Shown here: piece by piece, positions 1 through 63,499 of the stretch
Numbering within the stretch: position 1 is the stretch's first letter
Layout: every line of letters starts with the position of its first letter
Source: Octopus vulgaris
Lineage: Eukaryota
Reading direction: 5' to 3'
Assembly (NCBI GenBank): GCA_951406725.2
Contig: OX597816.1
Span: 34,782,001-34,846,000, forward strand
Length of the DNA stretch: 64,000 nt
The notes under the pieces: model-generated
Told to the model about the DNA's origin: nothing
Database searches by the model: none
What the model saw: only the letters and a program-made list of their open reading frames with translations
Program-made: the position numbers and the translations under genes

Positions 1-3259
<3,259 letters not shown>

Positions 3260-3261
<2 letters not shown>

Positions 3262-3607
3262 TGAATAAAGATAGAGTTAACGCAGGTGTAATCAAATATT
3301 TTAACTTTCGACACATGTTTCGAAAATTCCACTGATACTATTCAAAAGAATAAATGGTATAAACAATGCAATCTTCTCCTCAGGAAAGTGAAAAAAACGA
3401 AACTCGTCAATAAGACATTTTAGCAAAAAAAAAAATTAAAATTTGCTAAAATGTCTTATTGACGTGTTTCGTTTTTTTCACTTTTCTGAGAAGATTGCAT
3501 TGTTTATACCATTTAGTCTTTTGAATAGTATCAGTGGAATTTTTGAAACATTTGTCGAAAGTAAAAATATTTGATTACACCTGCGTTAACTCCATTTTTT
3601 ATTCATA
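3260..3607. repeat. Long inverted repeat (~165-bp arms, ~15-nt loop), probably the inverted pLTR of a Penelope-like element
   Basis: atgaataaagatagagttaacgcaggtg...catttt agcaaa is mirrored by tttgctaaaatg...cacctgcgttaactccattttttattcat. Confidence 0.9.
3304..3389 (-). ncRNA. Minimal type-I hammerhead ribozyme motif (PLE type); degenerate mirror copy on + at ~3480-3562
   Basis: Minus strand reads ACTTTC-CTGAGGA-GAAGATT...AATTTTC-GAAAC-ATGT-GTC-GAAAGT: 6-bp stem I, intact core, long stem II, palindromic mini stem III, GUC cleavage triplet. Confidence 0.75.
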
Positions 3608-3899: not shown

Positions 3900-5275
3900 T
3901 CCCATCGCTATTAGCTTAAGAGCATATATCAACAACTCACCGAAATATCATACCTATATATAAGCCCTTTAATGTTGTCCCACCTGAGTTAATACATAGA
4001 AAAAAATCCCATAAATTCTGTACGTTTCTCAAAAATAAGTCACAGGAGCACATTAGATAATATGTGGTCTCTTATAAAAACATTGTATCTAGTTAGAAAA
4101 CCCGAAATGCATAAGAACGTTATACTAATAAGAATTATTACCATCTTGTTGATAATATATCTAGGAATACTAGAAAAATACCGTGGCATTAAAAGTTCAC
4201 GAATCCTACTTCATAAAGAAGCTGAGATGCAAGCAAATTAACCCTCTTAGAAACGGGTTAGGGAAGCTAATAAAATAATACCCAGGCATCAAAATAATTC
4301 AGAAGTGCATCACCCTACGAAATCAACAGTATGCCTCTAGGGTATTACCAATGACTTATTTGTTTTAATTTCCTCAATTCGACTTTATAGGTTTTTGCTG
4401 CTCGAAATGTAGATCACTGCTGAAAAAAAACATTAGGTCTCATACCCGATTTGGCCGCTATTTGAGACTCAGAAATAGAACTGATTATGTATAAACGCTT
4501 CATCATGTTTTTGAAGAGCAGCTCTGTTTGGACAGGTAAAATAAAATTGATCCTAATGCTATGTTAGATATCTCGTTCAGATCATACGTCAGTGACAACA
4601 TGTGCGATGTGGTCAGCTTCTATATATGTTAAACCTTTAAGAATTCCCTAGCCCCAACACACCAATTTGATGGACATATTTTATGCAATTTTCGTAAGAA
4701 TCTCCTGATAGCTGTTAATAGCATAGGCTTCATGATAACCATAGACAATCATTAAACCAAAAGCTTTCTTAGATAACTCCCTAGATCTCGAAACAGGTAT
4801 CTATAAGCCGTTACATGAACCCAACGAGTAATTAAGATATATTAGCAGATTTTCTGAGATTCTACTTCAATAAAACAGAGCTCTCCCAAGTTGAATCTTT
4901 AAAGGAACGCTCTACTATTCTTCACCCAACATATCAAAACCTGAATTCCGGTAAAAATATATAACTACCTCACATTTCTTCGAAAGCTTTAAAACAGAAC
5001 TATCCTGTGATGCATCTCAAAATAAGATCTACAACTGTTGAAATATGGAAATGAGCATTATTCTTGTAATCCAAAAATGAATTTATTAATAATATTGAAA
5101 ACTAAGACAATTGTAAACCCAGGACGCACATATACCAAAAGAAAAATGAAATCTAACTAGATAAAAAGCATGAAATATCTCTCTATATCTCTATGAGGCG
5201 ACGGTTATCACTCGAAGCCGAAACAAGTTGCGGCATATATTTCAATGCTGCAAGGCTGATTTAAAACAAGGTATA
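3900..5275 (+). mobile_element. Degenerate Penelope-like element RT/GIY-YIG coding remnant
   Basis: Fragments ALKVHESYF..C..INP..NGLGK (~4185-4275), QFDFIGF (~4375), MCDVVSFYI (~4600), FLD..LDLETGIYKPLHEPN (~4765-4830) resemble PLE RT motifs; same sense as the + strand HHR copy upstream. Confidence 0.7.
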
Positions 5276-6557
5276 GGACGGTGGGTTAAGCAGCTTATAG
5301 GATGATTATGAAAGAGTGATGCTAGAGTTGTGAAATTGGGCTCAATAATTTCAAAACATCTTATTAATAACTACATTTTTAGAGCATTGTTCCTTTCTTG
5401 GTAAAGTGATATCTGACTGTTCAAAGAAGACTCCAAAAGTAATTAGTAGCGACTTCTCTTGAAAATGGACACAATTTAGCATAATGAATTATCAACTAAC
5501 TACAGAAAAAAGGATTTAACCCCCAATGACATTCATTCTGATATGCTTGCTACATTAAAGGATGCTGCCCCAGCTTTATCAACAGTATAAACGGGGGTCG
5601 TTAAATTTAGGTAGGGAAGAGAGAATCTTGAAGCTTACCGAGGATCAGGGCATCCTGCCACTGCCACCACTGAGGAAGACATTGATGGATGACAGGCGAT
5701 TGATTATCAATCAAATAGCCAATGCTATTAGCATATCCCGTGAGGGAGCAGAGAATATTCTGCATAATGAAGCTGGCATGATAAAGGTTTCAACTCGATG
5801 GATGCCACTTCTACTGACACCTGATCAAAAGTGCACCCGGCCGATAATATCACGTGAAAATCTCACATTGAGGCAGATTCAGTTTCTTTCCTTCGTCGTT
5901 TCCTAAGCAAACCACGATGAAGTTTGTTTTAATCACTTTGATCCAGAGACAAAGAGCAAATTCATGATGTGGAAACACCCTTCCTCATCTGCTCCAAATG
6001 AGGCCAAGGCCGTTCCGTCTGCAGAAAAGATGATGGCCCCAGCTTATGGGATGCACAAGGCATTAAGCTTATTGACTCTCTTCAAAAGCGTCATGGCCAT
6101 CAATGGAGAGTATTATGCCAAATTGCTGTGGCAGCTACGAAAGGCTATCAAAATCAAATACCCAGGAAAACTGGCGTTAGTTGTCTTGTGTTAACAGGAG
6201 ATTGCTCGAGCATTCAAGACCTTGGTTTCAAAGATTGCTGTGCATGACTGAGTCTGCGGACTGACTGATTCCCCTCCCTGTTCTCCTGAATTTTACTACC
6301 TGATTATCATCTATTCTCCAACATGAAAAAAATACTTGGATAGGAATCTGTATCGCTGTGATGATCATGTCATATATGCCGTCGATTTTATGACCAACTG
6401 AATGAAAGATTTTTCACCAATAAGATCCAAGCACTGCAATACAGGTGAGAGAAGTATGTGAACCGCAAGGGTGACTATGATGAAAACTAAGTCTCATTTG
6501 GTTACATTCCATGAGAGTGTCCTTTCCAATCTCTGAAAGTTTCAGTCGACTTTGACA
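5276..6557 (+). mobile_element. Degenerate mariner transposon
   Basis: KVSTRWMPLLLTPDQK, WKHPSS, INGEYYAKLL, decayed SPDL-like motif; TIRs related to the copy at 49219-50451. Confidence 0.88.
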
Positions 6558-11724: not shown

Positions 11725-12152
11725 TTTCTACTATCGGCTCAAGTCCTGTGTTGGATGAGTGGGAATAGTCGATTACATCGAAAATAATTACTTGACTGGT
11801 CTTTGATTTATCGATCCCAAAGTGATAAAATGCAAAGTTGACCTGGGCAGAATTTGAACTCAGAACTTATAGACGGACTAAACACTGCTAAGCATTTTTC
11901 CCGGTGTATCAACGAATCTGCCAGCTCGCCGCCTTACATATAGGTCATAATGGTTTCAAATTTTGAAACAATGATAGCAATTTCAGGGTAGGTGGTAAGT
12001 CGAATATATCGACTCCAGTACTCAACTGGTTCTTATAAACCACGAAAGGAAAAGTCAACCTCGGTGGAATTTGAACTCAGAACGTAAAGCCGAACTAACT
12101 GTGACTAAGCATTTTGCCCGGCGTGCCCACGATTCTGCCACCTCGCCGTCTT
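11725..12152 (-). mobile_element. Tandem pair of SINE family B (tRNA-like head plus Meta/Deu-like central domain)
   Basis: Two reverse-complement copies of ggcggcgagctggcaga...ttctgagttcaaattc...gtcgactttgcctttcatcc...aagtaccag. Confidence 0.8.
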
Positions 12153-13027
12153 ACACATTGAGGATAACGATATTATGCCAATATACATGAAGCCTAACAT
12201 TACTATACACTCTACTCAGCTTGGCTCTACTTCAACATAGCTCTTAGAAGGTATCCACTATGTTTTAATACATAGTGAAGATGATTAAATAACTTCAGTG
12301 TTTACCTGGGACTTTATTGAATCGGCACCACCCCAGAAAATTTGAAGCCAGAGTTAACCATGGTCTTATTTGATCCCATAACTGATATCCGGAACATATA
12401 ATGCTCGGTGGCTAAGTGGCAACGAAATGTTTCCCCTGGTATTAGTATCTGTATAATCGTGGAACCTCACCACTTTCTTTGGATTTCTAGTATTACCGTT
12501 CGTTAGAAAGTATTGTTATGATGTGTTTGCTTTGTGTTTCAACACATGATAAAGCATAAAAGATTCTATTGAACAAATTTGGTCGTCAAAATGTTTACTT
12601 AATATCACTGCCATTAATTTCACTTGAAGTCCACTGATTTTTATTGATTCAGTAAAATGTTTAAAAGTCGAGAGTAAATTAATTTCCTGTCAAAAGCCAT
12701 GTTATTATTTAAATCTTGTAGTCAAATTATGATGGACAAATTTGCTTTGTTGACAAGAAATTTTAGAAAATTGGTAAAAATTTATATCTTCAGATGAAGA
12801 AAACTGTATTGCAATGTATCTATGCATAAATGTGTATTCGGACGTGTCGACATACCAATTTCGTTGCCATGGTGTACGTATGAATCTACTTATGCTGCTT
12901 TTTTGCAAGTACTTCTGTAATTACGTATATTTCTTTGGAAGTGTTTACTATTTCAATGCGTGAATAAATGTGTATATTACTTACACACACACATACATAC
13001 ATATATATATATGTGTATATATATATC

Positions 13028-18943: not shown

Positions 18944-19056
18944 CAGGCGTCTTGGGGAAATTTCGTCCTATGGCGTGGTGCTTAAGAGCGCGGGATACTA
19001 ATCCCAAGATTCCGAGATCGATTCCAGACAGTGACTTTAATAATAATAATAATAAT
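18944..19056 (+). mobile_element. Truncated copy of the HHR/tRNA-head composite element
   Basis: caggcgtcttggggaaatttcg-tcctatggcgtggtgcttaagagcgcggg...gagatcgattccagacagtgac-(taa)n matches the 29k and 36k copies in reverse. Confidence 0.85.
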
Positions 19057-21534: not shown

Positions 21535-21574
21535 GTATGTGTGTGTGTGTATACACATACATTCATACTTAGAG

Positions 21575-21717
21575 ACATTTCATCTGCCGCTACGTTCTGA
21601 GTTCAAATTCTGCCGAGGTCGACTTTACCTTTCATCCTTTTGGGGTCGATTATATAAGTACCAATTACGCACTGGGGTTGAAGCAATCGACTTAAACCGT
21701 TTGTATGTCCTTGTTTG
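21575..21717 (+). mobile_element. SINE family B, 5'-truncated
   Basis: catttcatctgccgctacgttctgagttcaaattctgccgaggtcgactttacctttcatcc. Confidence 0.85.
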
Positions 21718-26717: not shown

Positions 26718-27084
26718 GTAAAATAATAAAATAGTTCAGCGCTTACGCCACTGGGGACAAGGGTCGTAACTTTGTAAGAATATAATGGAGTTACTTCCCC
26801 TAGTTGAATAGAACTCTGTCAGACACAAGATTATGAACTGTCGCTGTTTCAACAACTGCTATTTCTCAGAACACAATGAGCGGAGAAGTAACAACATATC
26901 TACTTCCTTACCTTTCCCATCTGGAAAGCATTACCTGAACCGTCATAATTATACACTTACAATGAGTTATGTTATTGGGTATCCACATTACCTATCTACC
27001 TCATTTCGTATTTTGCAATTTCTGCAGCTCTTGGTATGTTATAAGTAAATGTATGTGTTTACTTTTTGATATCGATTTCGACTG

Positions 27085-27258
27085 CGGTTACGTTCTGAGT
27101 TCAAATTCCGCCGAGGTCGACTTTTCTTTCCATCATTTCGGGGTCGATTAAATAAGTACCAGTCACACACTGGGGTTCAATGTAATCGACTTAATCCGTG
27201 TGTCTGTCCTTGTTTCTCCCCTCTGTGTTTAGCCCCTTGTGGGTAGTAATGATATAGG
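27085..27258 (+). mobile_element. SINE family B, 5'-truncated
   Basis: tacgttctgagttcaaattccgccgaggtcgac...agccccttgtgggtagtaa; absent from the paralogous site near 21248. Confidence 0.88.
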
Positions 27259-27324
27259 TATTTGATTATATATTAATCGAATACATGCCATTTGCAGATT
27301 GATGAATGGGTTGGTGTTAGTGTA

Positions 27325-28898: not shown

Positions 28899-29069
28899 AC
28901 ATTATTTACATTATTTACTTTCTTACATTTGACAGATATTTGTCCTCATCTTGTTTGTTGTAAACGTTTCGGCTGATATACCCTCTAGCCTTCATCAGGA
29001 GTCTTGAAGAAATTTCGAACCTGGGTTCTCATACCTGAAGTATTTTTCGTTGTTGATGATATTGTTATA

Positions 29070-29133
<64 letters not shown>

Positions 29134-29134
29134 C

Positions 29135-29203
<69 letters not shown>

Positions 29204-29403
29204 CATTATTATTATTATTATTCAGGTCACTGACTGGAATCGAACTCGGAATGTTGGAGTTAGTAGACCGCGCTCTTAACCACTGCACCATAGGACGAAA
29301 TTTCCCCAAGACGCCTAATGAAAGCGGGAGGGTATATCAGCAGAAACGTTGTGTTTACAACAAACAAGATGAGGACAAATATCCGTCAAATGTAAATAAT
29401 GTA
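28899..29403 (-). mobile_element. Composite element: inverted HHR arms flanking a tRNA-like head and (AAT)n
   Basis: Arms ~28899-29018 and ~29296-29403 are inverted; left arm (minus) CTGATGA-aggctagagggtatatcagcc-GAAACGTT; tRNA-like head 29223-29292 (minus). Confidence 0.85.
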
Positions 29404-30172
29404 ATAATATTGAAAAATGAGAATTTGAAAAGAGAAAAATGAGAAAAAAAAAAAGAAAGAAACTATTTGTGGAAAAGAAAAATTTAAGCGATCTTTTGCA
29501 GATCGTCTTATTGAAAGGTAGGAAGCGATTTACTCCGGAAATGAGGTGCAATTTTTTCCTAAAAAATTGTACAATTAGCAAAATGCTGGAAATTTATTAA
29601 AATGAAAATTTATTTATTCATTTTTTATTTTTCACAATGCTCTAAACATCCTGCAAATTCCAGAGTTACATGTTTATTAATTACAAAGCCGTACAGAAAG
29701 ATTTGTATTCCTTTCTAAATTATGGTAAATCTTTTGTTTTAGGACCAAGGTACACTCGCTTAATTCACTTATGTTTCCTTAAAATTTGAGCGATACTTAT
29801 TAAGTGACTGAAAGATAAAAATACTATTGTGGGTTGAACTAATAAATAAAATGGTCCAACAGAAAAAAATAAACAGATTTTGTCTTACGATGTTATTATT
29901 TACACGAAATTAAACTATTGTCGACAGCATCGAAGCCTTGCCATCGCAGGTTCTTTTCTATGTCTCAGACTCAAAATCGAATGAGAAAATAGTTGAACTA
30001 GAGTAAGATTTCGTTGTTCATTGTAACAATCCATGACTAGTATTCTTTCTCAACGTCTAGAGTTCTGGAAGTTCTTGTAGTACTTGTTATTGTAGCTGGT
30101 TCTGTTGCAACAATAACTGTTGTCGACGTTCTTGGTGATTTTGGTGTGTGTGTATGTGGGTCTATGTACATA

Positions 30173-30579: not shown

Positions 30580-31075
30580 TAATTCAATTCAATTCAATTT
30601 TTATTGGCTCAAAAAGCAAAGGCAAGGCCATGTAGGGGGACAGGGAGTTATGTACAGGGAGGATGGTCATACGAAGAGTTCAGGCCATTTCTGGTCAAGA
30701 GAGACTTTGAACCGAGCGGTCGTCGGCATCTTCACTATCTCGTCCGGCAGCTTATTCCTTGGATCCGCAACCCGGACGGAGAAAGCCCCTCTCCTTCGAT
30801 TGAGATGAAATCGTCGTTGATAGAGCTTTTCGGAGTGACCCCGCAGCCCACGCTCTGGAGCAGGAGTGAAGAACAGCTCTTTCGAGAGGTTACACTTTCC
30901 ACTTTTGATGTTGTGAGCGAGAATGAGATCACCACGGCGTCGTCGTTTTTCGAGAGAATAAAAGTCGAGCGTCTTCAGCCTTTCTTCATAAGACAAGTGC
31001 TTGAGAGCAAGAACCATGCGGGTAGCCAGCTTCTGGACTCTTTCGTGATGACGTATGTCTTTGAGGGGATACACC
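30580..31075 (-). mobile_element. CR1/L2-group LINE 3' fragment with (TTGAA)n tail
   Basis: ERVQKLATRMV...LSYEERLKTL..YSLEKRRRRGDLI...LRGHSEKL...FSVRV; aattcaattcaattc tail on +. Confidence 0.88.
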
Positions 31076-31547
31076 CAATTCGGTCAGGTATGCTCTTTTG
31101 TAAATTTTCCACTCAGAATTGTATAGCTTCTGCTCTGTATTCGTATTGAAGTTGAATTGAGGCGTATGAAACAAATCGAATGAAACAAAAAGACAGTCTT
31201 TGCTGGTTTTATTCTAGAGAGTCAACTCTTATGAATCTTACTATATGTTTAATAATGTGTTTTAGAAGTACGTCAATGAAACTACTAATTCCATGTACCT
31301 CACAATTGCTGTCATATTGGGATCTCTGGCATGTGGCATACTAATAGCTAATGAGGATGATCTGCTATAGGCCTGATTTATGACTTAACTCGTATGAATT
31401 TTTGAAGTCCGTGCATGTTATTGGCTTTACAGTCAAATTATGTCAAGTATTTATTTCCCTTTTCGTTAAAACCTCTGATATTTATCATTATTGTAAATTG
31501 TTGCTAATTTTTAATTTCTTTTATACAAAGTCATGAAGAAGAATGTT

Positions 31548-31850
31548 GAGGCACATGGCCTAGTGGTTAGAGCAGCGGACTCGCGGTCGAGGGATCGCGG
31601 GTTCGAATCTCAGACCGGATGATGTGTGTGTTTATGAGTGAAAACACCTAAGCTCCACGCGGCTCCGGTAGAAGGTAAAGGCGAACTTCTGTTGACTCTT
31701 TCACCACAACTTTTTCTCACTCTTTCCTCCTGCATCTTGCAGCTCACCTGCGACGGACCGGCGTCCCGTCCAGGTGGAGAACCTATGCGCCAAGAAACCG
31801 GGAAACCGGCACTTGTGAGCCAGGCATGGGTCGAGAAGGAACATACAAAA
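31548..31850 (+). mobile_element. SINE family C variant with V-domain-like tail
   Basis: gaggcacatggcctagtggttagagcagcggactcgcgg...ggttcgaatctc; ctgcgacggaccggcgtcccgtccagg. Confidence 0.85.
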
Positions 31851-31859
31851 ACGTAGATG

Positions 31860-32110
31860 AATTACTGCGGAGTTTATGTATAGTTCAGAGTTCATAATGA
31901 CTAAAGCATAACTTCTATCAGCTTCTTTAATAACTATATCATAATCGTCTTCGAGATCTTTGATGATTTCCCTTTCTTTTCGGTTTCCTGTTCGTTTAAA
32001 TTTCAGATATGTTAGTAAATTATTGGAGAAATTGCTTACAAAGAAACTAAACTCTCCAGAGTTTAGTTCCTGCCTTTTTTCCAGACTAGTTACCACTCGT
32101 TTCATGCGTT
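31860..32110 (-). mobile_element. Penelope-like RT N-terminal fragment
   Basis: EREIIKDLEDDYDIVIKEADRSYALVIMNSELY resembles the PLE I.IK.ADKG..VV.M...Y motif. Confidence 0.65.
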
Positions 32111-35048: not shown

Positions 35049-35930
35049 TGGAAATGGGACAGTTATCATTTATTTACAATTTATTAATTATAGTTTATTT
35101 CTGTAATTTAATTACGTTTAATTTAATTTGACTGCATGTGATTAAAATATGATATGGAAAGAATGTCATGCACAAATTGCCATAAATGTTATCTATTTAT
35201 TAAATTGTATGATTTTGTTTCCGTTTCTTTTCATCTTCTCTGTTTTCTTTTCTGATCTAATCATTCCATTTCCCAGTTTATTTTGATTAAAAATCGTTTA
35301 ACATTTCATTTGAGATGCTTTATTGCGGGTAGCTTAATTTACAACTGAGGACAGAAGAGAAAAATGGAGAGAATTGGAGCTGTAGAGAACAAAGAAATTA
35401 AAAGAAAAGATTCATGAAAGTGCAAATTATAATATCAGCTGATACAGAGGGTTTCAATAATCAGGAAGATGTATTGAATTAACTATACATGCATTCAGCA
35501 TATTCGTAAAACATTCTGTTTGAACAAAATACTATGGTGAATAACAAAAAGAAATTTTTTAAAAATTGATAAGTGCGTAACCACTCTGGTTACAAACTCT
35601 ATTTAAAGACTTCTCCTTCCAAAACAACATAATGCACATGGGCTAGTCGAAAATATTATTTGCCATCTCTGCGAGCAAAAAACAAAAGAATATGCTCGTT
35701 TCATCAATAGCAACGAAATGGTTAATGTAATTTTTAATTTTATTTTAGTGAACTAATTAGCTATGCAGTCATTCAATTTACGCTTGGATTTTCTTATCAA
35801 ATGATGCAATTTTGCTGGGTGATCTTTAGCTACTAGCCTTTTCAAGACGCTAAATGCATAGGAAATTTTCCGATCTTAAATTTACTTTTTTGGTCATGTT
35901 CTTATATTTGTTAGTGTCAACGTTGTCAAT

Positions 35931-36100
35931 ACATTATTTACATTATTTACATTTGACGGATATTTGTCCTCATGTTGTTTGTTGTTAACACAACGTTTCG
36001 GTCGATATACCCTGCAGCCTTCATCAGTTGTCTTGGGAAAATTTCGAACCTGGGTTCTCATTCCTAAGGTATTTTTCGATGTTGTTGTTGTTGTTATTGT

Positions 36101-36172
<72 letters not shown>

Positions 36173-36395
36173 TATTATTATTCAGGTCACTGACTGGAAT
36201 CGAACTCGGAATCCTGGGGTTAGTAGAACGCGCTCTTAACCACTACGCCATAGGGCGAAATTTCCCGAAGACACCTGATGAAGGCTGGAGGGTATATCAG
36301 CCGAATCATTGTGTTAACAACAAAGGTGAGGACAAATATCCGTCAAATGTAAATAACGTAAATAACGTACATAACTCCTCATCTCTTATATATAG
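35931..36395 (-). mobile_element. Composite element: inverted HHR arms flanking a tRNA-like head and (AAT)n, with terminal tail and 12-bp TSD
   Basis: Arms 35931-36047 and 36257-36368 inverted; tRNA-like head 36183-36252 (minus); TSD aacgttgtcaat 35919-35930 / aacattgtcaat 36396-36407. Confidence 0.9.
35987..36032 (-). ncRNA. Minimal type-I hammerhead motif (left arm); mirror copy on + at 36270-36315
   Basis: gacaa-CTGATGA-aggctgcagggtatatcgacc-GAAAC-GTT-gtgtt; four-arm consensus GACAC CTGATGA A GGCTG..CAGCC GAAAC GTT GTGTT. Confidence 0.65.
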
Positions 36396-36648
36396 AACAT
36401 TGTCAATGTCATCGGCATTCTTGCATAACTTCCTCTTCTACTTGACTACCAAGGTAGTGGTATACATGCAGTTGTATATCATAAAGTCTTTGCTCATAAT
36501 GTTCTTTGTTACTGCTGGCCCACGTCATAATTTGCTAAATCTCAACCTGAAAATATCAGCGATTACTTTTTGTGCTAGTTATTGCTACTGTGGTTAGATT
36601 TTGGGGGTTCTACCCATCATATTGATGTTATTAGTACGAGTACTTCGA

Positions 36649-36882
36649 GGGCGGTGAACTGGTAGAATCGTTAGCACGCCGGGCGAAATGCTTAGCGGCA
36701 TTTCGTCTGCCGCTACGTTTTGAGTTCAAATTCCGCCGAGGTCGACTTTGCCTTTCATCCTTTGCGGGTCGATCAAATAAGTACCAGTTACGCACTGGGG
36801 TCGCTATAATCGACTTAATCCTTTTGTCTGTCGTTGTTTGTCCTCTCTGTGTTTAGCCCCTTGTGGTTAGTAAAGAAATAGG
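36649..36882 (+). mobile_element. SINE family B, full length
   Basis: ggcggtgaactggtagaatcgttagcacgccgggcgaaatg...gagttcaaattcc...taaagaaatagg. Confidence 0.92.
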
Positions 36883-49218: not shown

Positions 49219-50451
49219 TACGAGGTTCGGCTGGAAATTACACAGGAGGACCAAGATGCTCTCATTGAATGCGACCAAAGAAGGTTAATTTTTCAACATA
49301 GGTCTCCTTGCAGTCTGCGTGCTTCTTCCATCGGTATTGTAGTGTTTGGATTGGCGAAGAAGCTTTCATCCTGATGGTTAAACAAGGCATCGATAACAGC
49401 AATGACGTCGTCATCACTGCGACATCGCTTCCCATCCAACTGTTGCTTCACATTGGAGAAAAGATAATATTCAGATGGGGCCAACTAAGGAGGATAAGGA
49501 TGGTGATCAACCAGTTGATATCCATAGTCACGGAACGCAGCCATTGAAACCAAGATCGCGTTTGCTGGGGCAATGTCCTGATAAAACAAGTTCCCTTTCG
49601 TTATTTTATCTGGGAATTTGATCTTGATAGGGTTTCGTAACTGCTTCAACAAGATGTCATAGCACTCTCCAGTGATGGTGTCGCCTTTTTGAAGGTAGTC
49701 AATAAACACAATGCATTTTGAATCCCTCAATATTGAGCGGATTAACTTCCCGGTAGATGAAAAACCTTGGCCTTCTTTGGAACAGGTAAGGGGAGATATT
49801 TCCACTGCATAAATTGTATCTTTATCTCTGGCTCAAAGGATTGAACCCTACACTCACCATGGCTTAGGAAACGTTCAAGTAAAGCAGTTGCATTTGTCTC
49901 AAATAATGTCAGATTTTCTCGTGATGTTATCAGTCTTGTGTGCTGTTTAACAGGTGTCAGAAGACGAATCCCCCACCTTCGCCATACCAAGTTCATTGTA
50001 CAGAGCATTCTCAACTCTCTCACGGGATATGCCAATAGCATTGAGTATTTGATTTATAGCCAATCACCTGTCATCCATTACCACGGTCAATTTTTTCCTC
50101 GGTGATGGCAGTTTCAAGACGGCCAGACTTTGGGGTCACTTTCAAGAATCGCTCTTCCCCTCCTAAATGCAGCAGTCTGATTTTTCACCGCTAAAGCTAG
50201 TGCGTCATTTTCTAATATGACAACCATTTTACTGCTGGTACATGATAACACCACAATGCCAAATTTTGTCAATTTTCAAGAGACTCTCTACTACTTACAT
50301 TTGAAATCTTCTTTGGACGTAAGATATTTAGTTTACTTGGAAAGAAATAATGCAGTTACTAATAAAAGTCGAAATTAATGCATGCAAGATTACACAGCTC
50401 TTGTAGCACTCCTTCATATTCAGCTTATGAACCTTTCAGCCAACGCCGGTA
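49219..50451 (-). mobile_element. Degenerate mariner transposon with both TIRs and TA flanks
   Basis: FIDYLQKGDTITGECY, HHPYPP*LAPSEYYLF; ends tacgaggttcggctggaaa / ctttcagccaacgccggta. Confidence 0.9.
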
Positions 50452-50746
50452 AAATGAGGGAAATAAATGTAAAACAAATCAGGAATAAAATAGATGTTGC
50501 GAGAACTAGCATTATAATTACAGTTGAAAAATAAACGAAACAACAAATCTATGAAAATGAAAATACAAGTGGTAGCTTCAAGATAACTAATGACTAAAAT
50601 ATGCAATTAATTGCCTATTGACAGGAAGCATTGTATGCGTTGTGGATATAACCACCAGGAAATTTTAATCCAGTTAGCTTGCTGGGTGTGGCTGAAGATA
50701 CACAGTCTTGCTTAAAATGATAATATAATTTAATTGTTTACACATA

Positions 50747-51163
50747 TACCTATTTCTTTACTAACCTCAAGGGGCTAAACACAGAGAGGACGAACAAGGA
50801 CAGTCAAAGGGATTAAGTCGATTACATCGACCTCAATGCACAACTGGTACTTATTTTATCGACCGCGAAAGGATGAAAGGCAAAGTAGACCTCGGCGGAA
50901 ATTGAACTCAGAACGTAACGGCAGACGAAATACCTATTTCTTTACTACCTACAAGGAGCTAAACATAGAGGGGACAAACAATGACAGACAAACGGATTAA
51001 GTCGGTTATATCGACCACAGTGCGTAACTGGTACTTATTTAATCGACCCCGAAAGGATGAAAGGCAAACTCGACCTCGGCGGAATTTGAACTCTGAACGT
51101 AACGGCAGACGAAATACGGCTACGCATTTCGCCTGGCGTGCTAACGTTTCTGCCAGCTCACCT
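50747..51163 (-). mobile_element. Tandem dimer of SINE family B
   Basis: Unit tacctatttctttact...gaacgtaacggcagacgaaa repeated at 50747 and 50931; only one head. Confidence 0.88.
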
Positions 51164-54633: not shown

Positions 54634-56583
54634 AGTGCAAAAAATCGTATTAACTGGAACGGCTCATGTACTGAGAAGAGCATTATCGCTGTAAAAACAA
54701 TATCCTTTCATGAATTTATTTATTTCTTAATTTTTTAATACATATTTTATCTGTGAATTTGCGTGTGTAATCTGGGAATGCGTACAATGAGCTTCTCTGG
54801 TGTATTTCTGATGTTCTAACTGCAATTCACCGTTCGAAAATAAATCATCGTATTTGTATCGTATATTTGAGAGGCATTGTGTTATAGTTACAATGCTTTT
54901 CTGGATGTTTGTTGCCAGGAATATTATGATTAAAAATGAGTTCTCTTGGTTAGAGAGCAACTGATGCCTGGAGTCTCAGTAGTTGTGTTGCACTGCCGGA
55001 TATAGTGATATTATTCTTTATTTCCATTAGATGTTTTCTTGCCTCTTGAGATGAGGGAACGATATGGCCCGCCTAACATCATTGATGAAAGCAAAGGTGT
55101 TACTGTAGTGATTAAACTGAGAGTAGCTTCAGCATAACTGAAATTCTTTGGTAGAAGATACGATGCGGTGTCAATTTTATGAATACTTACCAAGTGAGTT
55201 GACTCTTAATTGTACACATAGCACATAGGAAACCGGAGAATGAGTAGTAACGTTCTAGACAGAGTCTCTGACGTAGAGATAGCATGAGATTTTTTTATCC
55301 TATTTCAATTGTGCAAGTTGCGTAAAACAATTATTAATTGTGGGATGTCATGTGTTGATTTTGTGGGTGTTGTCGTCGGAGTTGTTTGATTGTGATTTGA
55401 GAGTAACATTGTAGTTTGTACACATTGATTTGAGTGGGTCTGCGATTCTATTAAACATAATGTTGAATTGATGACGATGGCAACGAAGAACAAAAGGGTA
55501 TTTTATTAACTGTATTTTATTTCCCCTGTTGAGGAAATGGATAAGCTATTACACTCAAAGAAACTAAGATCACTGTCAAATACGGCATTGTATTTTTATT
55601 GTTGTTAATTACGTCACTTCGTTTCCAATTTGTTGTGTGATTATTGAAAGAAATGACCGTAATTTTACTGAAATTCAATAATTCTATATCTTCACCTTTG
55701 AATTACGGCAGTTAAATATTAACTTGAATGTTTCATCTACGGTCACTGACATTTACTTAATCATCATAGCTATCATTACCATTTAGAGAATTCGAGAATA
55801 TGCCTATAATTTCAGTGTCAGTTCTTCTATATACGACAAGAATTTCTGCGTTGGCATTCATCGACTGAAGCGCATTGTGTTCACTAATTACAATTGATAG
55901 GTCCTTGACACCAGCTTATCTAACAAGCTTAACATATGTTAGCGACTCGTTGATAACTCTCTTCTATCGTTCATGGAGTTCAGTGAAATCATTATTGAAC
56001 ACATTTTTCTCGAGTGAATTCCCGAATATCATGTATTGTCACAGTTTATATCAACCACCCTTTAATGTCGATTTTTTTACATTAACTGAGGCATTAGCAA
56101 AGTATCAGACCCAAGCATTCTTGTGTTATCTTTCAGCTGATATCAGCTTGTATCAGCTTCGTTGCATCTCTCATACATTTCACATTGTGATTTATGTTTG
56201 AATACGGTATGCGCAGCTTGATTGCAAAAATATTGTAAAAGAATTGGTAAAAAAAAGGATGAACTCTTTTAGGGTAAAAGGAAATATCCACCACCAGCAC
56301 GTGCCAAAATTTCACTTACATTATAGAAATGCAGAATTAAATCGCTTTTGGCACTAAACAGTTATCTCATTTGTATCGTAATTTTCAAAGCTGCTGATTT
56401 TCAGAAACGTTATACAGCCTCACTGCTCCGGCTTTTTGCGTTCTGGAGTAAAATTTTCGAAAACTTTTTGGGTAAAATTTTACGGTGAAAACTTTCGGAA
56501 AATTTGTGGGTAAAATTTTCGGGGAAATTTTCGAAAAATTTTTGTTGAAAATTTTCACTGAAAAAATGCGACGGTCGGAAAAA

Positions 56584-57050
56584 TGGGGCGCACCGGAATG
56601 CCGAGTCCGAAGCCAACGCTACAGCCCCGTACAGGTCCGCCGCTTCGCGTGAAGACATGTTCCGGCGCCCGACGGCGCGACGCCGAGCGAACGGCGACAC
56701 ACACGGCCCGACCGACCCGGTCCTCGGAGCCAATCCTTCTTCCGAAGGTACGGATCTATTTTGCCGACTTCCCTTACCTACATGGGCGCTATCGACGAGA
56801 GGCTGTACACTTTGGAGACCTGCTTCGGATGGTGGGTACGGACCGACTCGAGAGCTGCGATTCGTTACGGACCCGACTTTTCCAGGGCCGCCGAAAGCGC
56901 ACCGGACGCCGCCCGAGACGCGGCGCTCTACAGGTACCTTATCCGTATCTCCGGACGAGCCGATTCCACGGACGCGATCCTTTACGAAGAAGAGAGAACT
57001 CTTCCCGGGGCTCCCGGCAACGTCTCCGGGCTCGCTTGCGTTGCCGCTTC
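56584..57050 (-). rRNA. Dispersed 28S (LSU) rRNA fragment, from just after D7b into D8 (pseudogene)
   Basis: Conserved cores on minus: GGGAGCCCCGGGAAGAGTTCTC, GCAGGTCTCCAAAGTG.ACAGCCTCT, ATGTAGGTAAGGGAAGTCGGCAA, AAGGATTGGCTC; GC-rich island. Confidence 0.92.
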
Positions 57051-57057
57051 TTCGCCC

Positions 57058-58198
57058 TTAAATTTGTGTTCATTTTACTGAATAATAGTATTAAAATTTC
57101 TTTGATTAAAACCCAAGTATCCAAAGAGCATTTGAGGCACATAATGCTTTATGAGTACCAAAATGAAGCTCGGCAACCGAAGCGACTCGAAACATGCACT
57201 CAGTTTATGGGAAAGAATGCTTGAATGAAAGAATTTGCAGATGGTTTGCAAAATTAAGAAGTAGAGATTTCAGCCTTTAAGATGAAGATCGAACAGAACG
57301 TTCAGTTGAGTTTGATGATAAACTCCCTGAGGTATTACTTGAAGAAAACCCAGCATTATCAGTTGAAGAATTGGCAATAAAGGTTAGTTCAAACCATACG
57401 ACTGTTCACCGTCATCTTCAACAACTTGTGAAATTGGTGTCTCATGAATTTTCCGAAAGCAAACGCAAATCCCGAGTGGACATCTGCTCTTCTCTTCATT
57501 CTCGCGAACTCATTTCACCCTTTCTGGATAGACGTTTGACTGGTGACGAAAAATGTATGTTCTATCGAAATGTTAAACCTCGTAAACAGTGGCTCGGTAA
57601 AAGGTAAAAACGCTCAATCTCGACCGAGAAGGGAACTTCATGGGAAAAAGATTCTTCTCTTTATGTAGTGGGATTGCAAAAGAGTAATTCACTTTGAATT
57701 CTTACCACCTAATGAAACAATCAATGCTAAAAGTCTACTGTCAGCAATTAGAGCGTTTGGATCAAGCTTTGAAGCAAAAAAAGACCCTCATTAGTAATTT
57801 CGAAAAGGAGTGATGTTTCATCAGGGAAATGCGCGACCCCACACTGCAAAGATCACATCACAGAAGATCGAAGAGCTTGGTTGGGAAAAAATTCCCTATC
57901 CACCTTATTCTCCCGACCTTGTTCCTTCAGACTGCCTTTTGTTTCGTAGTTTACAGAATCATTTCAGTGACATAACTTTCGCAAGCCAGGCGGAGGTCGA
58001 AACTAACATTTCAGAGTTCTTCGCTTTGAATCCAAAAGAGTTTGACATTGATGGGATTAAAAGGCTTTTAAAAAGATGGAAGGAAATCATAAATAATCAG
58101 GAAAGGTATATTGATGATTAAATTTCAATTAGATATAACATTTGATCACTTGTTTTCTTTATTCAAAATTCGGACAGAACTTATGGGATGGTCTGATA
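57058..58198 (+). mobile_element. Mariner transposon, frameshifted, 5' TIR not found
   Basis: HLRHIMLYEY, TGDEK, FHQGNARPH, PPYSPDLVPSDCLLFRSLQN; 3' TIR cggacagaacttatgggatggtctga-TA. Confidence 0.92.
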
Positions 58199-60000: not shown

Positions 60001-60450
60001 TAATCATTTCTGCTATAGGTAAGAGGTCTGGAATTCAGGGGTGGGGATAGTCGATTAGATGGACGCTAGTGAGCACTGGCACTTATTTTTATCGACCTCG
60101 AGAGACTGAAAAGCAAAGTCGACCTCGACGGAATATGATCTCTGAGCGTGAAGACGGGCGAAATGCCGCCAAACATTTCACTCGGCGTGCCAACGACTCT
60201 GTCAGCTCGTCGCCTTATTGCTGATATCTAATAATCATTTCTGCTATAAGTGCAAGGCTTGAAATTTGGAGAAGGTGGACTGGTCGATTACATCGAGTCC
60301 AGTGAGCATCTGGTACATATTTTTACCGACCCTGAAAGTATGAAGGGCAAAGTCGACCTCGGCAGTATTTGAACTCAGAACGTGAGGACTCTTCGAAATA
60401 GCGCTACGTATTTTGCCCGGCGTGCTAACGATTCTGCCAGCTCACCACCT
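60001..60450 (-). mobile_element. Tandem pair of SINE family B
   Basis: ~232-bp units both beginning taatcatttctgctata on +. Confidence 0.85.
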
Positions 60451-62155
60451 TGTTTCTGATTTCAAATAATACAAAACTGTTCGATGTTTTTACCACCAGA
60501 AATGGCGTGTCTCTACATTACCCGTTTAAAAATTTTAATTAATGCAAAACCTGCAATGATTGATATTTCCCCAAGGTTTTCCTTTTATCAATTTTTGAAA
60601 AGTTACGTTTGCCTATGTTTAGTTTAATTAAACATTGTTCGGCGCAGTTTACCTCACCATAATACACGTAAAGAGTCGTGTTTATCATGCTGAACAAATT
60701 AATTATACGAGAAGTACAAGGTAATAGAAACTCTAGGATATATACTTCACTATTTTGCATGATTTTTTTGTTCACATATTGGGAGATAAATCATGAAAAT
60801 TTATAAGTTCGTATGTTGCATAATATTAATATTTGGAAATGCTATATTATGTTTCTTTTTTTTTAATCAAATACATTATTACCTTAAATAATATGAAACG
60901 CAACAGATATAAACATGTAATAGGTTGTAAAAAACACGTTAAAATTTTTTTTTCGTGAATCTATCAATGAAATATTATTCATCTGCTACGAAACGATGAA
61001 GCCAAACATATTTCCTGTTAACGAAGACATCGTGATACGTACGTACCCCACTACTCACACACAAACATACATACATACATACATATAGAGAGATGAATAA
61101 GAGAAAATGGATTGAATGATATTCTTTATTTTATTTCCCTACAATTGTTTCTACATATTGTTACAACCGTAGTATATAGATAAGATGATATAATTAACAT
61201 TTTGCGTTACAGGTGTAAAATTTTTCTATAGGTGATTATTTCCAATACACCTTTCGTTGGACCACACTGTCATTTGAAAAATATAAATATATATATGAAT
61301 AATGCAATATGCTATTTCCAGTTTTGTGAAAACAAAACTAAACTCATAGGCACTGTGAGTGACAGCCAAAACACCAGTATAATCGAAATACAAAACACAA
61401 AAACAAAGAAACAGGCATAAAAAAATCTCCCATGTGAAGATAAATATTAATTATAATTCCAGCTTTATGATTAGATAATTAGGAAGAAAGCGAAAGACAA
61501 AATTAAAAATGGTATTAAACGTACACAGATAATAAAAGTATAAACTGATTAATACTGATCATTTCCATTACAAGAAGACGGGGATACTTTGGAGGCATTT
61601 TCTGCTTACCTACTAATTTATTCTTTTAAACGTTTCTAAAAAGGATACAAGTACTAGAGATTTATTAATTAACTTTGCATAGGGACAGTTTTCATTGCAA
61701 CATGCAGAAAATACTTTAGATCCCTTTTAAGTAAACAGGAAATGGTCAGTCTAATCATTTTATTAACATTATTATTTCTACACGCTTAATTTCATTCTTC
61801 ATTTTCCTTTTTCGTTTTCTTCTTAATTAACTGACCATGGTGATAATATTGCAATTTAGAGTTAATGGGTGTTAACGTCTGTGCTTGTTTCTTTATTTTT
61901 GCATTTTGTATTTTGATTAAACTTGTGCGTTGTCAGTCACTATATCTTTGGACATAGTTTTGTCTGCAACTTACTGGGGAAATGGCATACTCCTTTGGGT
62001 GTCCATTCTTCTCAGAAGTGAAATGACATTATGATCAAACTAAGGATTTATTCAAAATAATACTCTGAAGATACAAGATGACATCCATGAGCCAATAACT
62101 ACGGCCAAGCTTTGCATAGAATACTGCAAACATTTTACCAAATTTCATTCAACCG

Positions 62156-62296: not shown

Positions 62297-62367
<71 letters not shown>
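62156..62367. repeat. (ATCT)n microsatellite
   Basis: Direct reading. Confidence 0.95.
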
Positions 62368-63499
62368 CGGTTCCTGCAATGCAGATAGATTCCTTCAAGT
62401 GAACACATAGAGAGATGTGCAACTAGCATCAAACTAAATTTCACAGTTTTTTTCTTCTACTAGTGCAAAGATACAATTTCTTTACAAGAACGTTTAAATA
62501 AAGAAAATTTATTCATCGAAAAATACAGAACACGTATAAATATGTACGCATAACCAGGTGTGATCTCCATACATATTTTAATTCACGATTACATAACCAT
62601 TACTGTACATACTCCACTACTCTAGTGTTTGAATTTTAAGTCATTTAAAAACACACAAAACCGTTAAATTAACTTCAACATTTAAATTTAATTACATGCA
62701 ATTGTTACATGTTTTTCTGTCATATAATATATACATACCTAAGTTTGACTGACAGAACACAGCACTTGTAATTCCATTGGACTATTACTTACTCCTCCAT
62801 TGCCCTCTATCCCTGTATATAGAGTCGGAATTTCAGTACTATTACTGACAAGATACAGCATTTGTAATTTCACTTCACTATTACCAATTTTTGGGCAACT
62901 AGAAAACGATTCACATACTAAACAGGTATTTGTTTTAATATTTAAAAGAAAATTAATGTGTGGTTCTGGAGCGTCTCCCATGTTCATCAAGGAAGAATGA
63001 ATTAACATATGGCCGAAGGAAAATAAAAGGGTGTCGGTGCTAGGATTGAAGTTACAACAACAAATGTGATTCATTACCTGATACCAACAACAGAAAAAGT
63101 AATATTTTGTCATGTGTGCATCCTTGTGGATATGAAACAGACTATTGTTTAAAATATATGATTAAATTCTTCTCCTCACGTATACTAAGATCTCAAAGCT
63201 ATCAAATAATTCACATTAGACTGTCGTTTAAATATTCTTATGATGCTTTTGTTAAAAACAATGATTTCTTTCCTATTTGAATAAAACAGAGAGTCTCATA
63301 AGAAACGTTTACTTTATCAGATAATCGTTTACAAAATGTTACAAGGCAAGGAACCAGGTGTACAACAAAGTTTTCAATGAGTTTTCAATGACATTATTTC
63401 GTCTTCATTTTATTGCCCGAAACATATGAACAGCATAATATTTCATTACCTCAAGTTCTATAAAAAAATGCATTCATATCTACGAATATGTATGATTGT

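Follow-up and report, generated by a model that had tools for sequence, protein, structure and literature searches.

The repeat unit that occurs three times in the window (the whole 64,000-nt stretch of Octopus vulgaris DNA analysed here) is, head included, the pseudo-LTR of an autonomous retrotransposon of the Penelope/Poseidon type, and its origin from a Penelope-like element (PLE) is close to certain. The SINE-like unit was recognized as a Penelope pseudo-LTR because the open reading frame (ORF) of the element is continuous with its tail, and the tRNA-like head is found again 3′ of the ORF. A captured tRNA-derived Pol III promoter probably drives the Penelope element, and the SINE-like copies would then mostly be its own short products. 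The name Poseidon presumably applies; it was chosen from ORF geometry and a likeness of motifs, not from a tree of reverse transcriptases (RT).

Copies in the window and structure of the family

In the first-pass annotation one insertion was described as a tRNA-like head and an (AAT)n tract enclosed by two inverted arms of ~115 bp, and all of these parts were located. The 3′ arm of the head-bearing copy (35930..36046, minus strand, 117 nt) corresponds to the first ~130 nt of the Penelope ORF, includes a minimal type-I hammerhead and terminates at the tail-less end point. The hammerhead motif, sense relative to the head (35987..36032, minus strand), has its core CUGAUGA at 36027-36021 and GAAAC-GUU at 35999-35992; the predicted cut is between 35992 and 35991, and stems I and II are mutated. 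On the same strand lie the spacer (36047..36080), with the first in-frame ATG of the Penelope ORF (36061-36059), the (AAT)n/(AAC)n tract (36081..36182), which is variable in length and a predicted 5′ leader, and the tRNA-derived head (36183..36254), a predicted Pol III promoter and RNA start with its A box at 36250-36240 and B box at 36207-36196. In other family copies, later insertions often land in the (AAT)n tract. The second monomer copy (36255..36369, plus strand, 114 nt) is inverted and 5′-truncated, and its hammerhead core is broken (GAAAC-GUU changed to GAAUC-AUU at 36303-36310). The extension claimed for the right arm is present and restricted to it; this Penelope "tail" (36370..36398, plus strand) measures 29 nt, not ~27 nt. 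The 12-nt direct repeat with one mismatch was also found (35919..35930 and 36396..36407, plus strand); it is read as a target-site duplication from the sequence and the family-wide repeat test, and its right copy overlaps the tail end by 3 nt.

The second head-to-head insertion (28907..29408, minus strand) has the same layout that had been claimed for it, but it has neither tail nor target duplication (the best flanking repeat is 5 nt), and the cut site of its sense arm is deleted. The third insertion (18944..19056, plus strand) is partial; the head and tract are there, but the inverted part is a 24-nt stub and the downstream arm is absent. The observation that every arm in the window is mutated holds for all four.

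The genome (2.80 Gb, 227 contigs) was searched with three queries (head plus arm, arm plus tail, and head alone), giving a family sample of 89 loci, of which four were duplicates and were dropped. The monomer consists of the tRNA-like head, (AAT)n, a 36-nt spacer, the arm with the hammerhead and a tail of ~30 nt, in this order. Most sampled loci contain two monomers head to head, each cut at its 5′ side at a different point, and mapping of the parts showed that the junction differs from locus to locus. The "sandwich" of the window is one case of this variable junction, and the fixed architecture proposed for it was not upheld: junctions vary widely, and a single arm is in sense to the head. 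Nor do the two hammerheads form one functional unit, since the upstream arm lies outside any head-started transcript and the two monomers are joined variably.

In 40 of the 44 pairs with both outer ends resolved, one end was at the tail and the other 23-43 nt (once 7 nt) short of it, with queries that were biased toward one tailed end and not toward a short second end. The remaining resolved pairs were tail-less (3/44) or had two tails (1/44). Tabulated across the family, direct repeats of at least 11 nt (one mismatch allowed) flanked 22 of the 44 pairs vs. 1.1% of 1892 mismatched flank pairs. This excess over the null, together with thousands of first-look candidates genome-wide, excludes a chance origin. 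Copy number was estimated, roughly, at ~28,000 insertions (95% range 6,000-81,000) from three insertions in 302 kb. A tail at one end and an inverted copy have been described as a signature of PLEs (PMC8557442). Because the tail is on one arm only, the second copy is inverted and the target is duplicated, the family insertions were read as Penelope-type. The first-pass proposal of mobilization by Penelope machinery appears to be right, given the 40/44 tail/short-end pairs and the target duplications.

Head-to-tail tandems of the non-LTR retrozyme kind are not the form of the sampled loci (L001-L089), which are monomers or head-to-head pairs with few local duplications. A few tandem deletion forms were found in a further set (L214-L243), including two derivatives in which ORF+234 is joined to the head (L235, L239). 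The junction at ORF+234 recurs in four loci, perhaps from two or three events, and was given no weight. A separate head-only SINE was considered and rejected; 5 of 30 head-query loci lacked the arm, but the tract was disrupted by a later LINE insertion in two.

The autonomous Penelope parent

An RT fragment beside the spacer at one locus (L039) served as the entry point, and a search with this fragment led to 29 other loci. The head was found 3′ of the ORF on the same strand in 20 of these 29 RT-selected loci, and the arm as well in 17; at the other nine, the element was lost or the 3.2-kb locus ends first. The autonomous PLE sharing arm and tail, which the first-pass annotation had proposed to look for, was thus found. 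The same 20 loci place the head inside the autonomous pseudo-LTR, and it can no longer be regarded as a SINE-specific addition to a Penelope tail. When loci were chosen by a query on the junction of tail and ORF start, the two were directly continuous in 29 of 30; when ORF sequence was the sole criterion, they were so in 7 of 30.

The complete layout was observed within single loci (L252, L253, L255). The full-length order is head, (AAT)n, ATG, hammerhead, tail, an ORF with RT and GIY-YIG-like parts, 36 nt, and the head again. The majority ORF encodes ~835 amino acids in one frame; its start ATG is in the spacer, and it runs via the hammerhead and the tail to a stop 29 nt before the head and 36 nt before the A box. 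The ORF end was placed from aligned real copies, the majority sequence being short of a 25-nt stretch near the end. Partial tandem and inverted 5′-truncated copies, which form the pseudo-LTR of PLEs, are present. The motifs DKG, YVDD, and CxC were identified in the majority frame. Pfam RVT_1 was matched in three of six real-copy fragments (from three real copies). Pfam GIY-YIG was not matched by two C-terminal fragments; the C-terminus is 42% identical over 258 amino acids to P0062, named as a GIY-YIG endonuclease by its source, and has CxC and GET motifs. Relatives carry PF00078 and PF26215; some relatives (P0002-P0121) are 60-75% identical.

Several other candidates for the parent were rejected. 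Fifty GIY-YIG loci of other Penelope families were without the arm, save for one separate insertion in L130, and a young Penelope family encoding 781 amino acids is not the partner. The arm-peptide search among longer proteins gave one match, an Octopus sinensis gene model that opens with the arm peptide yet is not the PLE. Eight distant relatives on metagenome contigs (32-49% identity) have 5-23 T4 runs each; no tRNA was found in them, and most of these contigs end before the pseudo-LTR region.

The putative promoter and the source of the short copies

The description of the head as tRNA-like with canonical A and B boxes was borne out. It aligns best to tRNA-Arg (TCT, TCG) among 31 tRNA loci of 34 matches, an incomplete set, and the boxes match the pattern and spacing quoted for SINE heads in PMC8969392, the distance of 10-15 nt from the 5′ end included. 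ARAGORN called no tRNA at default and did so only at the 70% threshold. The 5′ ends of the copies pile up at the head. Among 56 heads that reach the A box, 53 stop within ~15 nt of it and three continue into the ORF end; these loci came from arm or head queries and the top 40 similarity matches, a sample that may favor short copies. Six further heads are truncated inside the head. Three of four insertions in unselected DNA stop at the head. Candidate counts along the ORF (at least 2652, 1041, and 246) suggest a decay length near 650 nt, from which smooth truncation would predict that 2-5% of copies stop at the head. The 5′ ends lie 7-14 nt ahead of the A box, as a Pol III start would predict, and the full-length copy L252 begins 9 nt before it.

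It is likely that Pol III initiates at the head, as the pile-up of 5′ ends and the lack of T4 runs suggest. Transcription of the whole 2.9-kb coding RNA by Pol III, with an ORF purged of terminators, translation without a cap and tens of thousands of SINE-like copies shed, is proposed more tentatively, at somewhat below even chances, and cap-less translation of a Pol III RNA is its weak point. As to origin, the pseudo-LTR would have captured a tRNA-SINE with an (AAT)n end immediately before the ORF. Pol III would transcribe from this head across the terminator-free ORF, the Penelope protein would nick both target strands, and reverse transcription would begin at two internal positions of the RNA separated by ~30 nt, the tail end and the tail start. 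Two internal RT start sites and double-strand nicking have been demonstrated in vitro for PAc of the anole (PMC11167929). A head-started RNA would carry the RT start window twice; reverse transcription from the first window would give head-to-tail sequence only (~300 nt, the SINE-like unit), and that from the 3′ window would give long, 5′-truncated copies. The two cDNAs would meet and be joined at variable points, producing an inverted pair with one tail and a duplication of 9-14 nt.

The short copies might instead form an independent non-autonomous SINE, transcribed by Pol III from source genes of their own and mobilized by the Penelope protein in trans. They outnumber long copies in the sampled loci (53/56) and retain intact A and B boxes, they keep ~166 nt of the ORF, near the 172-nt minimum for PAc (PMC11167929), and tandem deletion derivatives joining ORF+234 to the head exist (L235, L239, above). 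This explanation is nevertheless unlikely, as the short copies have diverged from the majority sequence about as much as the long ones (5.4% vs. 4.9%), linked variants are held in common and the head belongs to the parent element. The linked variant T57A+A126G was present in 10 of 106 short arms and in 14 of 73 arms from ORF-bearing loci. A weak third-codon-position excess in the ORF frame was detected in short copies (site permutation within base class, P = 0.02), which in the head-query subset alone was not significant (P = 0.31). A shared frameshifting indel is absent; each of the 24 indel events held in common has a length divisible by 3, but they occur in short tandem repeats and may reflect slippage. 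The shared variant, the third-position excess and the in-frame indels together point to coding source genes for the short copies. Equal age, the common variant and the third-position signal speak against the independent non-autonomous lineage of the first-pass annotation. Unlike a SINE2, which is a lineage separate from its partner and shares only the 3′ tail with a LINE, the short form has a PLE as its partner; it appears to work in a SINE-like way but fails the separate-lineage test. Secondary spread of short copies in trans may also occur.

A second alternative, which we consider less probable still, is a Pol II-driven Penelope whose head was left behind by an old SINE insertion and whose 5′ ends pile up because of a Pol II start, RNA processing or snap-back of the cDNA. 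The characterized Penelope promoter is internal, TATA-less, of the Inr/DPE type and located in the pseudo-LTR (PMC2377424), and a capped RNA would be simpler to translate. Sequence on either side of the head start forms a near-perfect hairpin, and perfect palindromes centered there make up many of the junctions. Against this stand the A and B boxes, which match the consensus at canonical spacing, and the 5′ ends 7-14 nt before the A box. RT also read through the hairpin in the majority of long-copy partners. At ORF-bearing loci, inverted partners pass the head-start point in 5 of 10 cases by automatic classes (P = 0.001) and in 7 of 8 after hand-sorting (P = 1e-6), in which L159 and L243 were assigned to "through" and L216, L217, L235, and L236 were dropped (their main copy is not a long truncated ORF). 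The head is therefore not an RT block. Of the five upstream copies in tandem whose sequence reaches the A box, two continue beyond the head, so some RNA starts farther upstream.

The absence of T4 terminator runs also argues against Pol II. None was found in the 2.63-kb sense majority, a modest departure from the synonymous shuffle (P = 0.014-0.022; base shuffle, P = 0.006), and three decayed full-length copies have one each (3 in 8.2 kb, 0.37 per kb). Three other Penelope families have 50 T4 runs in 11.9 kb (4.2 per kb), although these control families are distant (25-35% protein identity) and one is itself mildly depleted relative to its own shuffle (P = 0.03). G4 runs are likewise absent from the majority sequence, where 1.3 are expected.

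Three unstranded raw RNA runs and one contig set were aligned on L255. Pieces of the window also occur in sequencing runs of five organisms (shares of 0.18-0.55 for the 20 that contain them), none listed as RNA; of these, X1 was aligned. Reads were abundant, with equal depth on both strands, which in unstranded data does not discriminate. No end pile-up was detected in these reads at the head or the cut site. Between the head bin and the first bin upstream of it, depth dropped ~1.6- to 2-fold, compared with an ~18-fold step among DNA copies; this small step is in favor of Pol II, but the comparison is distorted by single expressed loci and partial alignments and leaves the step unsupported. 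In the three runs, A>G/T>C counts were no higher than C>T/G>A counts, and read joints on L255 are due to the arm being split over the reference.

Finally, the window copy alone (arms inverted about a core, direct repeats on the outside) would suggest a foldback or MITE-like DNA element whose terminal inverted repeats are long, or a SINE nested by chance in a palindrome. This reading has next to no probability: the arms are asymmetric in 40/44 pairs, the junctions are variable, the arm forms the 5′ coding portion of an RT gene, and ORF continuity refutes it.

The hammerhead and related systems

The consensus hammerhead core proposed in the first-pass annotation proved intact: in the majority of 114 family arms the CUGAUGA and GAAA core is complete, stems I and II are each 5 bp long and stem III is a palindromic ACGU. 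The bulged A that precedes stem II, G10.1-C11.1 and a palindromic 15.2-16.2 also fit. The same set of features (core, stems, bulge, and palindromic stem III) has been described for minimal PLE hammerheads (PMC4209133), and by sequence the family hammerhead conforms to the minimal type-I form of metazoan PLEs. By the criteria used, 48 of 114 arms are intact, and none of the four window arms. The sole common non-CpG variant in the core is at N7, a free position. Covariation of stems I and II, which had been proposed as a check, was not observed (4 double changes over 12 pairs × 114 arms), as is expected for neutrally decaying copies of a single family. An Rfam check gave no hammerhead or tRNA match in the window or among the best 150 of 161 rows from six loci.

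Monomer folds had z values of −1.4 to −1.9 for three arms and +1.5 for the window sense arm. When the majority hammerhead was folded as a dimer, the dimeric ribozyme fold was not the energy minimum. It is predicted that the hammerhead needs a dimer or a protein, and that it is dispensable for insertion. Truncated 5′ ends exactly at the cut site were found in 3 of ~128 cases, a weak signal (P about 0.05). Most copies retain sequence 5′ of the predicted cut site, from which uncleaved RNA appears to be the usual insertion template, as in PAc.

The octopus element resembles PAc (Poseidon_Ac, Anolis) and D. virilis Penelope in its single ORF with an RT and, toward the C-terminus, a putative GIY-YIG-like domain, in the pseudo-LTR overlapping the ORF start, in the minimal type-I hammerhead with a bulge before stem II and a palindromic stem III, and in its 5′ truncation, partial tandems, inverted 5′ copy and ~30-nt tail at one end (PMC11167929, PMC8557442, PMC4209133, PMC2377424). 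In the place taken by an Inr/DPE-type promoter and an intron in the D. virilis Penelope pseudo-LTR (PMC2377424), the octopus element has a tRNA-derived head and (AAT)n. It also differs from these elements in that 5′ ends pile at the head, the sense strand is without T4 runs and solo pseudo-LTR copies dominate.

Promoters derived from tRNA or 5S RNA have been reported in the terminal repeats of non-autonomous LTR elements, namely the TRIMp3 elements Cassandra, Helenus, and Ajax (<1.3 kb), with a proposed origin by SINE insertion; for their autonomous partners, Pol II transcription is expected, and a shared repeat is not (PMC10886601). The octopus family is like TRIMp3 in having a Pol III-type promoter derived from a small RNA in a terminal repeat, and unlike it in that the promoter carrier is a 2.6-kb coding Penelope element. 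In Schistosoma Sm-alpha and Sj-alpha, a Pol III-type promoter is likewise followed by a type-I hammerhead; these form tandem direct repeats with canonical, monomer-releasing hammerheads, and the available part of the review describes no coding parent (PMC6765202). The octopus copies, unlike these, are scattered and inverted, and they belong to an RT gene. Metazoan non-LTR retrozymes and MRC1-type non-autonomous PLEs are also short, non-coding, hammerhead-bearing and related to pseudo-LTRs, and both have been proposed to use PLE enzymes (PMC7761336, PMC8557442). It has been proposed that retrozymes derive from pseudo-LTRs (bioRxiv 10.64898/2026.07.22.740005, PMC7761336). Retrozymes form head-to-tail tandems, and no promoter motif is described for them in the portions of these sources available; the octopus family is instead head-to-head and tRNA-headed.

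According to a repeat annotation of O. vulgaris, 893 recently active SINE families are unclassified and SINEs underwent a burst at JC 0.065; the parts of it available make no mention of a hammerhead (PMC13282606). Neither a PLE with a tRNA head nor a SINE carried by a PLE in octopus was found in the full-text literature, as far as the accessible parts of the sources go (PMC3531059, PMC8967140, and PMC9223172 among them), a scope distinct from Repbase, Dfam, and SINEBase. An entry for the short unit may already exist, under whatever name, in such repeat databases.

The octopus tRNA-SINEs OK, OR1, and OR2 were reportedly described by Ohshima and Okada in 1994. Like the present family they have a tRNA-derived head, likely in the same host genus, and the heads of OR1 and OR2 are Arg-like. 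Both OR1 and OR2 have been cited as CORE-SINEs (PMC4824008, PMC4758252). Compared by description, the octopus head is unlike theirs in being followed directly by (AAT)n and ORF-derived sequence, with no room for a CORE of ~60 nt. With neither tandem arrays nor a CORE, the family would be neither a retrozyme nor a CORE-SINE.

Pol III promoters are commonly taken as the mark of short non-autonomous elements. It has been argued that autonomous partners must use Pol II (PMC10886601), and a coding Penelope with a tRNA promoter would, if true, break this rule. A LINE-like element and its SINE would then be contained within one transcription unit, with a direct route for a SINE-like family to be born from inside its own partner, and the long Pol III RNA would offer a testable case of cap-independent translation. 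On the scale of a genome, the insertions also back the in vitro model in which reverse transcription of PLEs starts at two internal sites. Octopus repeat libraries contain SINE families without a class by the hundreds (PMC13282606), and in them the members of this family would fall partly under SINE and partly under Penelope labels. Each head-to-head insertion equips host transcripts with a ready-made long hairpin.

Joints of head-to-head pairs and short deletion forms

Where both copies of a head-to-head pair are of full length, the joint between the two inverted monomers is a perfect palindrome, as at the genomic loci L040, L070, L080, and L082. These palindromes centre on the 2-nt loop immediately before the head, which suggests annealing of the two cDNA ends at this loop.

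The same ORF position, 234 nt past the tail, was found as a junction in four loci (L219, L226, L235, and L239), creating short tandem deletion forms. Its partner is the hammerhead cut site in two of the loci and the head start in the other two. A fixed 3′ end of the RNA could explain the recurrent junction, but so could two to three chance events.

Relatives and other Penelope families

Numerous proteins from sequence assemblies (P0002–P0121) are 60–75% identical to that of the studied element. A gene model of Octopus sinensis (P0001), found with the arm peptide, carries the ORF start of the element as its first 38 residues; the remainder of the predicted protein looks like a cysteine-rich membrane receptor. 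The fusion is either an exonisation or an error of the gene model.

Decayed fragments of other Penelope-type ORFs were identified in the window at 31074–32042 (minus strand) and 62362–62541 (plus strand), neither having a DNA-level relationship to the studied family. Elsewhere in the genome, a young Penelope family (L120–L124) has intact 781-aa ORFs with RT and GIY-YIG domains, each preceded by an open frame of 330–380 aa; a hammerhead scan of these loci found none. Another distinct family, with a variant hammerhead core, is represented by L125, where the inverted 5′ copy (1821–2586 and 4218–4983) is 100% identical, and the element is therefore a recent insertion.

Other repeats and open frames in the window

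A second tRNA-like repeat family, more frequent than the studied one, was found at 36650–36882, 21565–21717, 27075–27263, 50743–51162, 60001–60470, and 11767–12158, with direct tandem pairs at 50743–51162 and 60001–60470. A decayed, dispersed fragment of large-subunit rRNA lies at 56572–57200 on the minus strand (Rfam RF02543, 122.7 bits). Judged by eye, a 620-aa open frame at 1179–3041 (minus strand) reads like a LINE endonuclease-RT. Also present were an inverted pair of about 1.2 kb with 66% identity (5297–6517 and 49259–50428) and, at 3383–3486, an AT-rich sequence of about 100 nt that forms a near-perfect hairpin, for which all miRNA-model matches were under threshold.

The (AAT)n tract as a target

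At L065 (1627–3066) and L083, the (AAT)n tract that follows the head is split by one and the same LINE-type RT sequence, which we take to be R4/Dong-like. The tract serves as a target of other elements.
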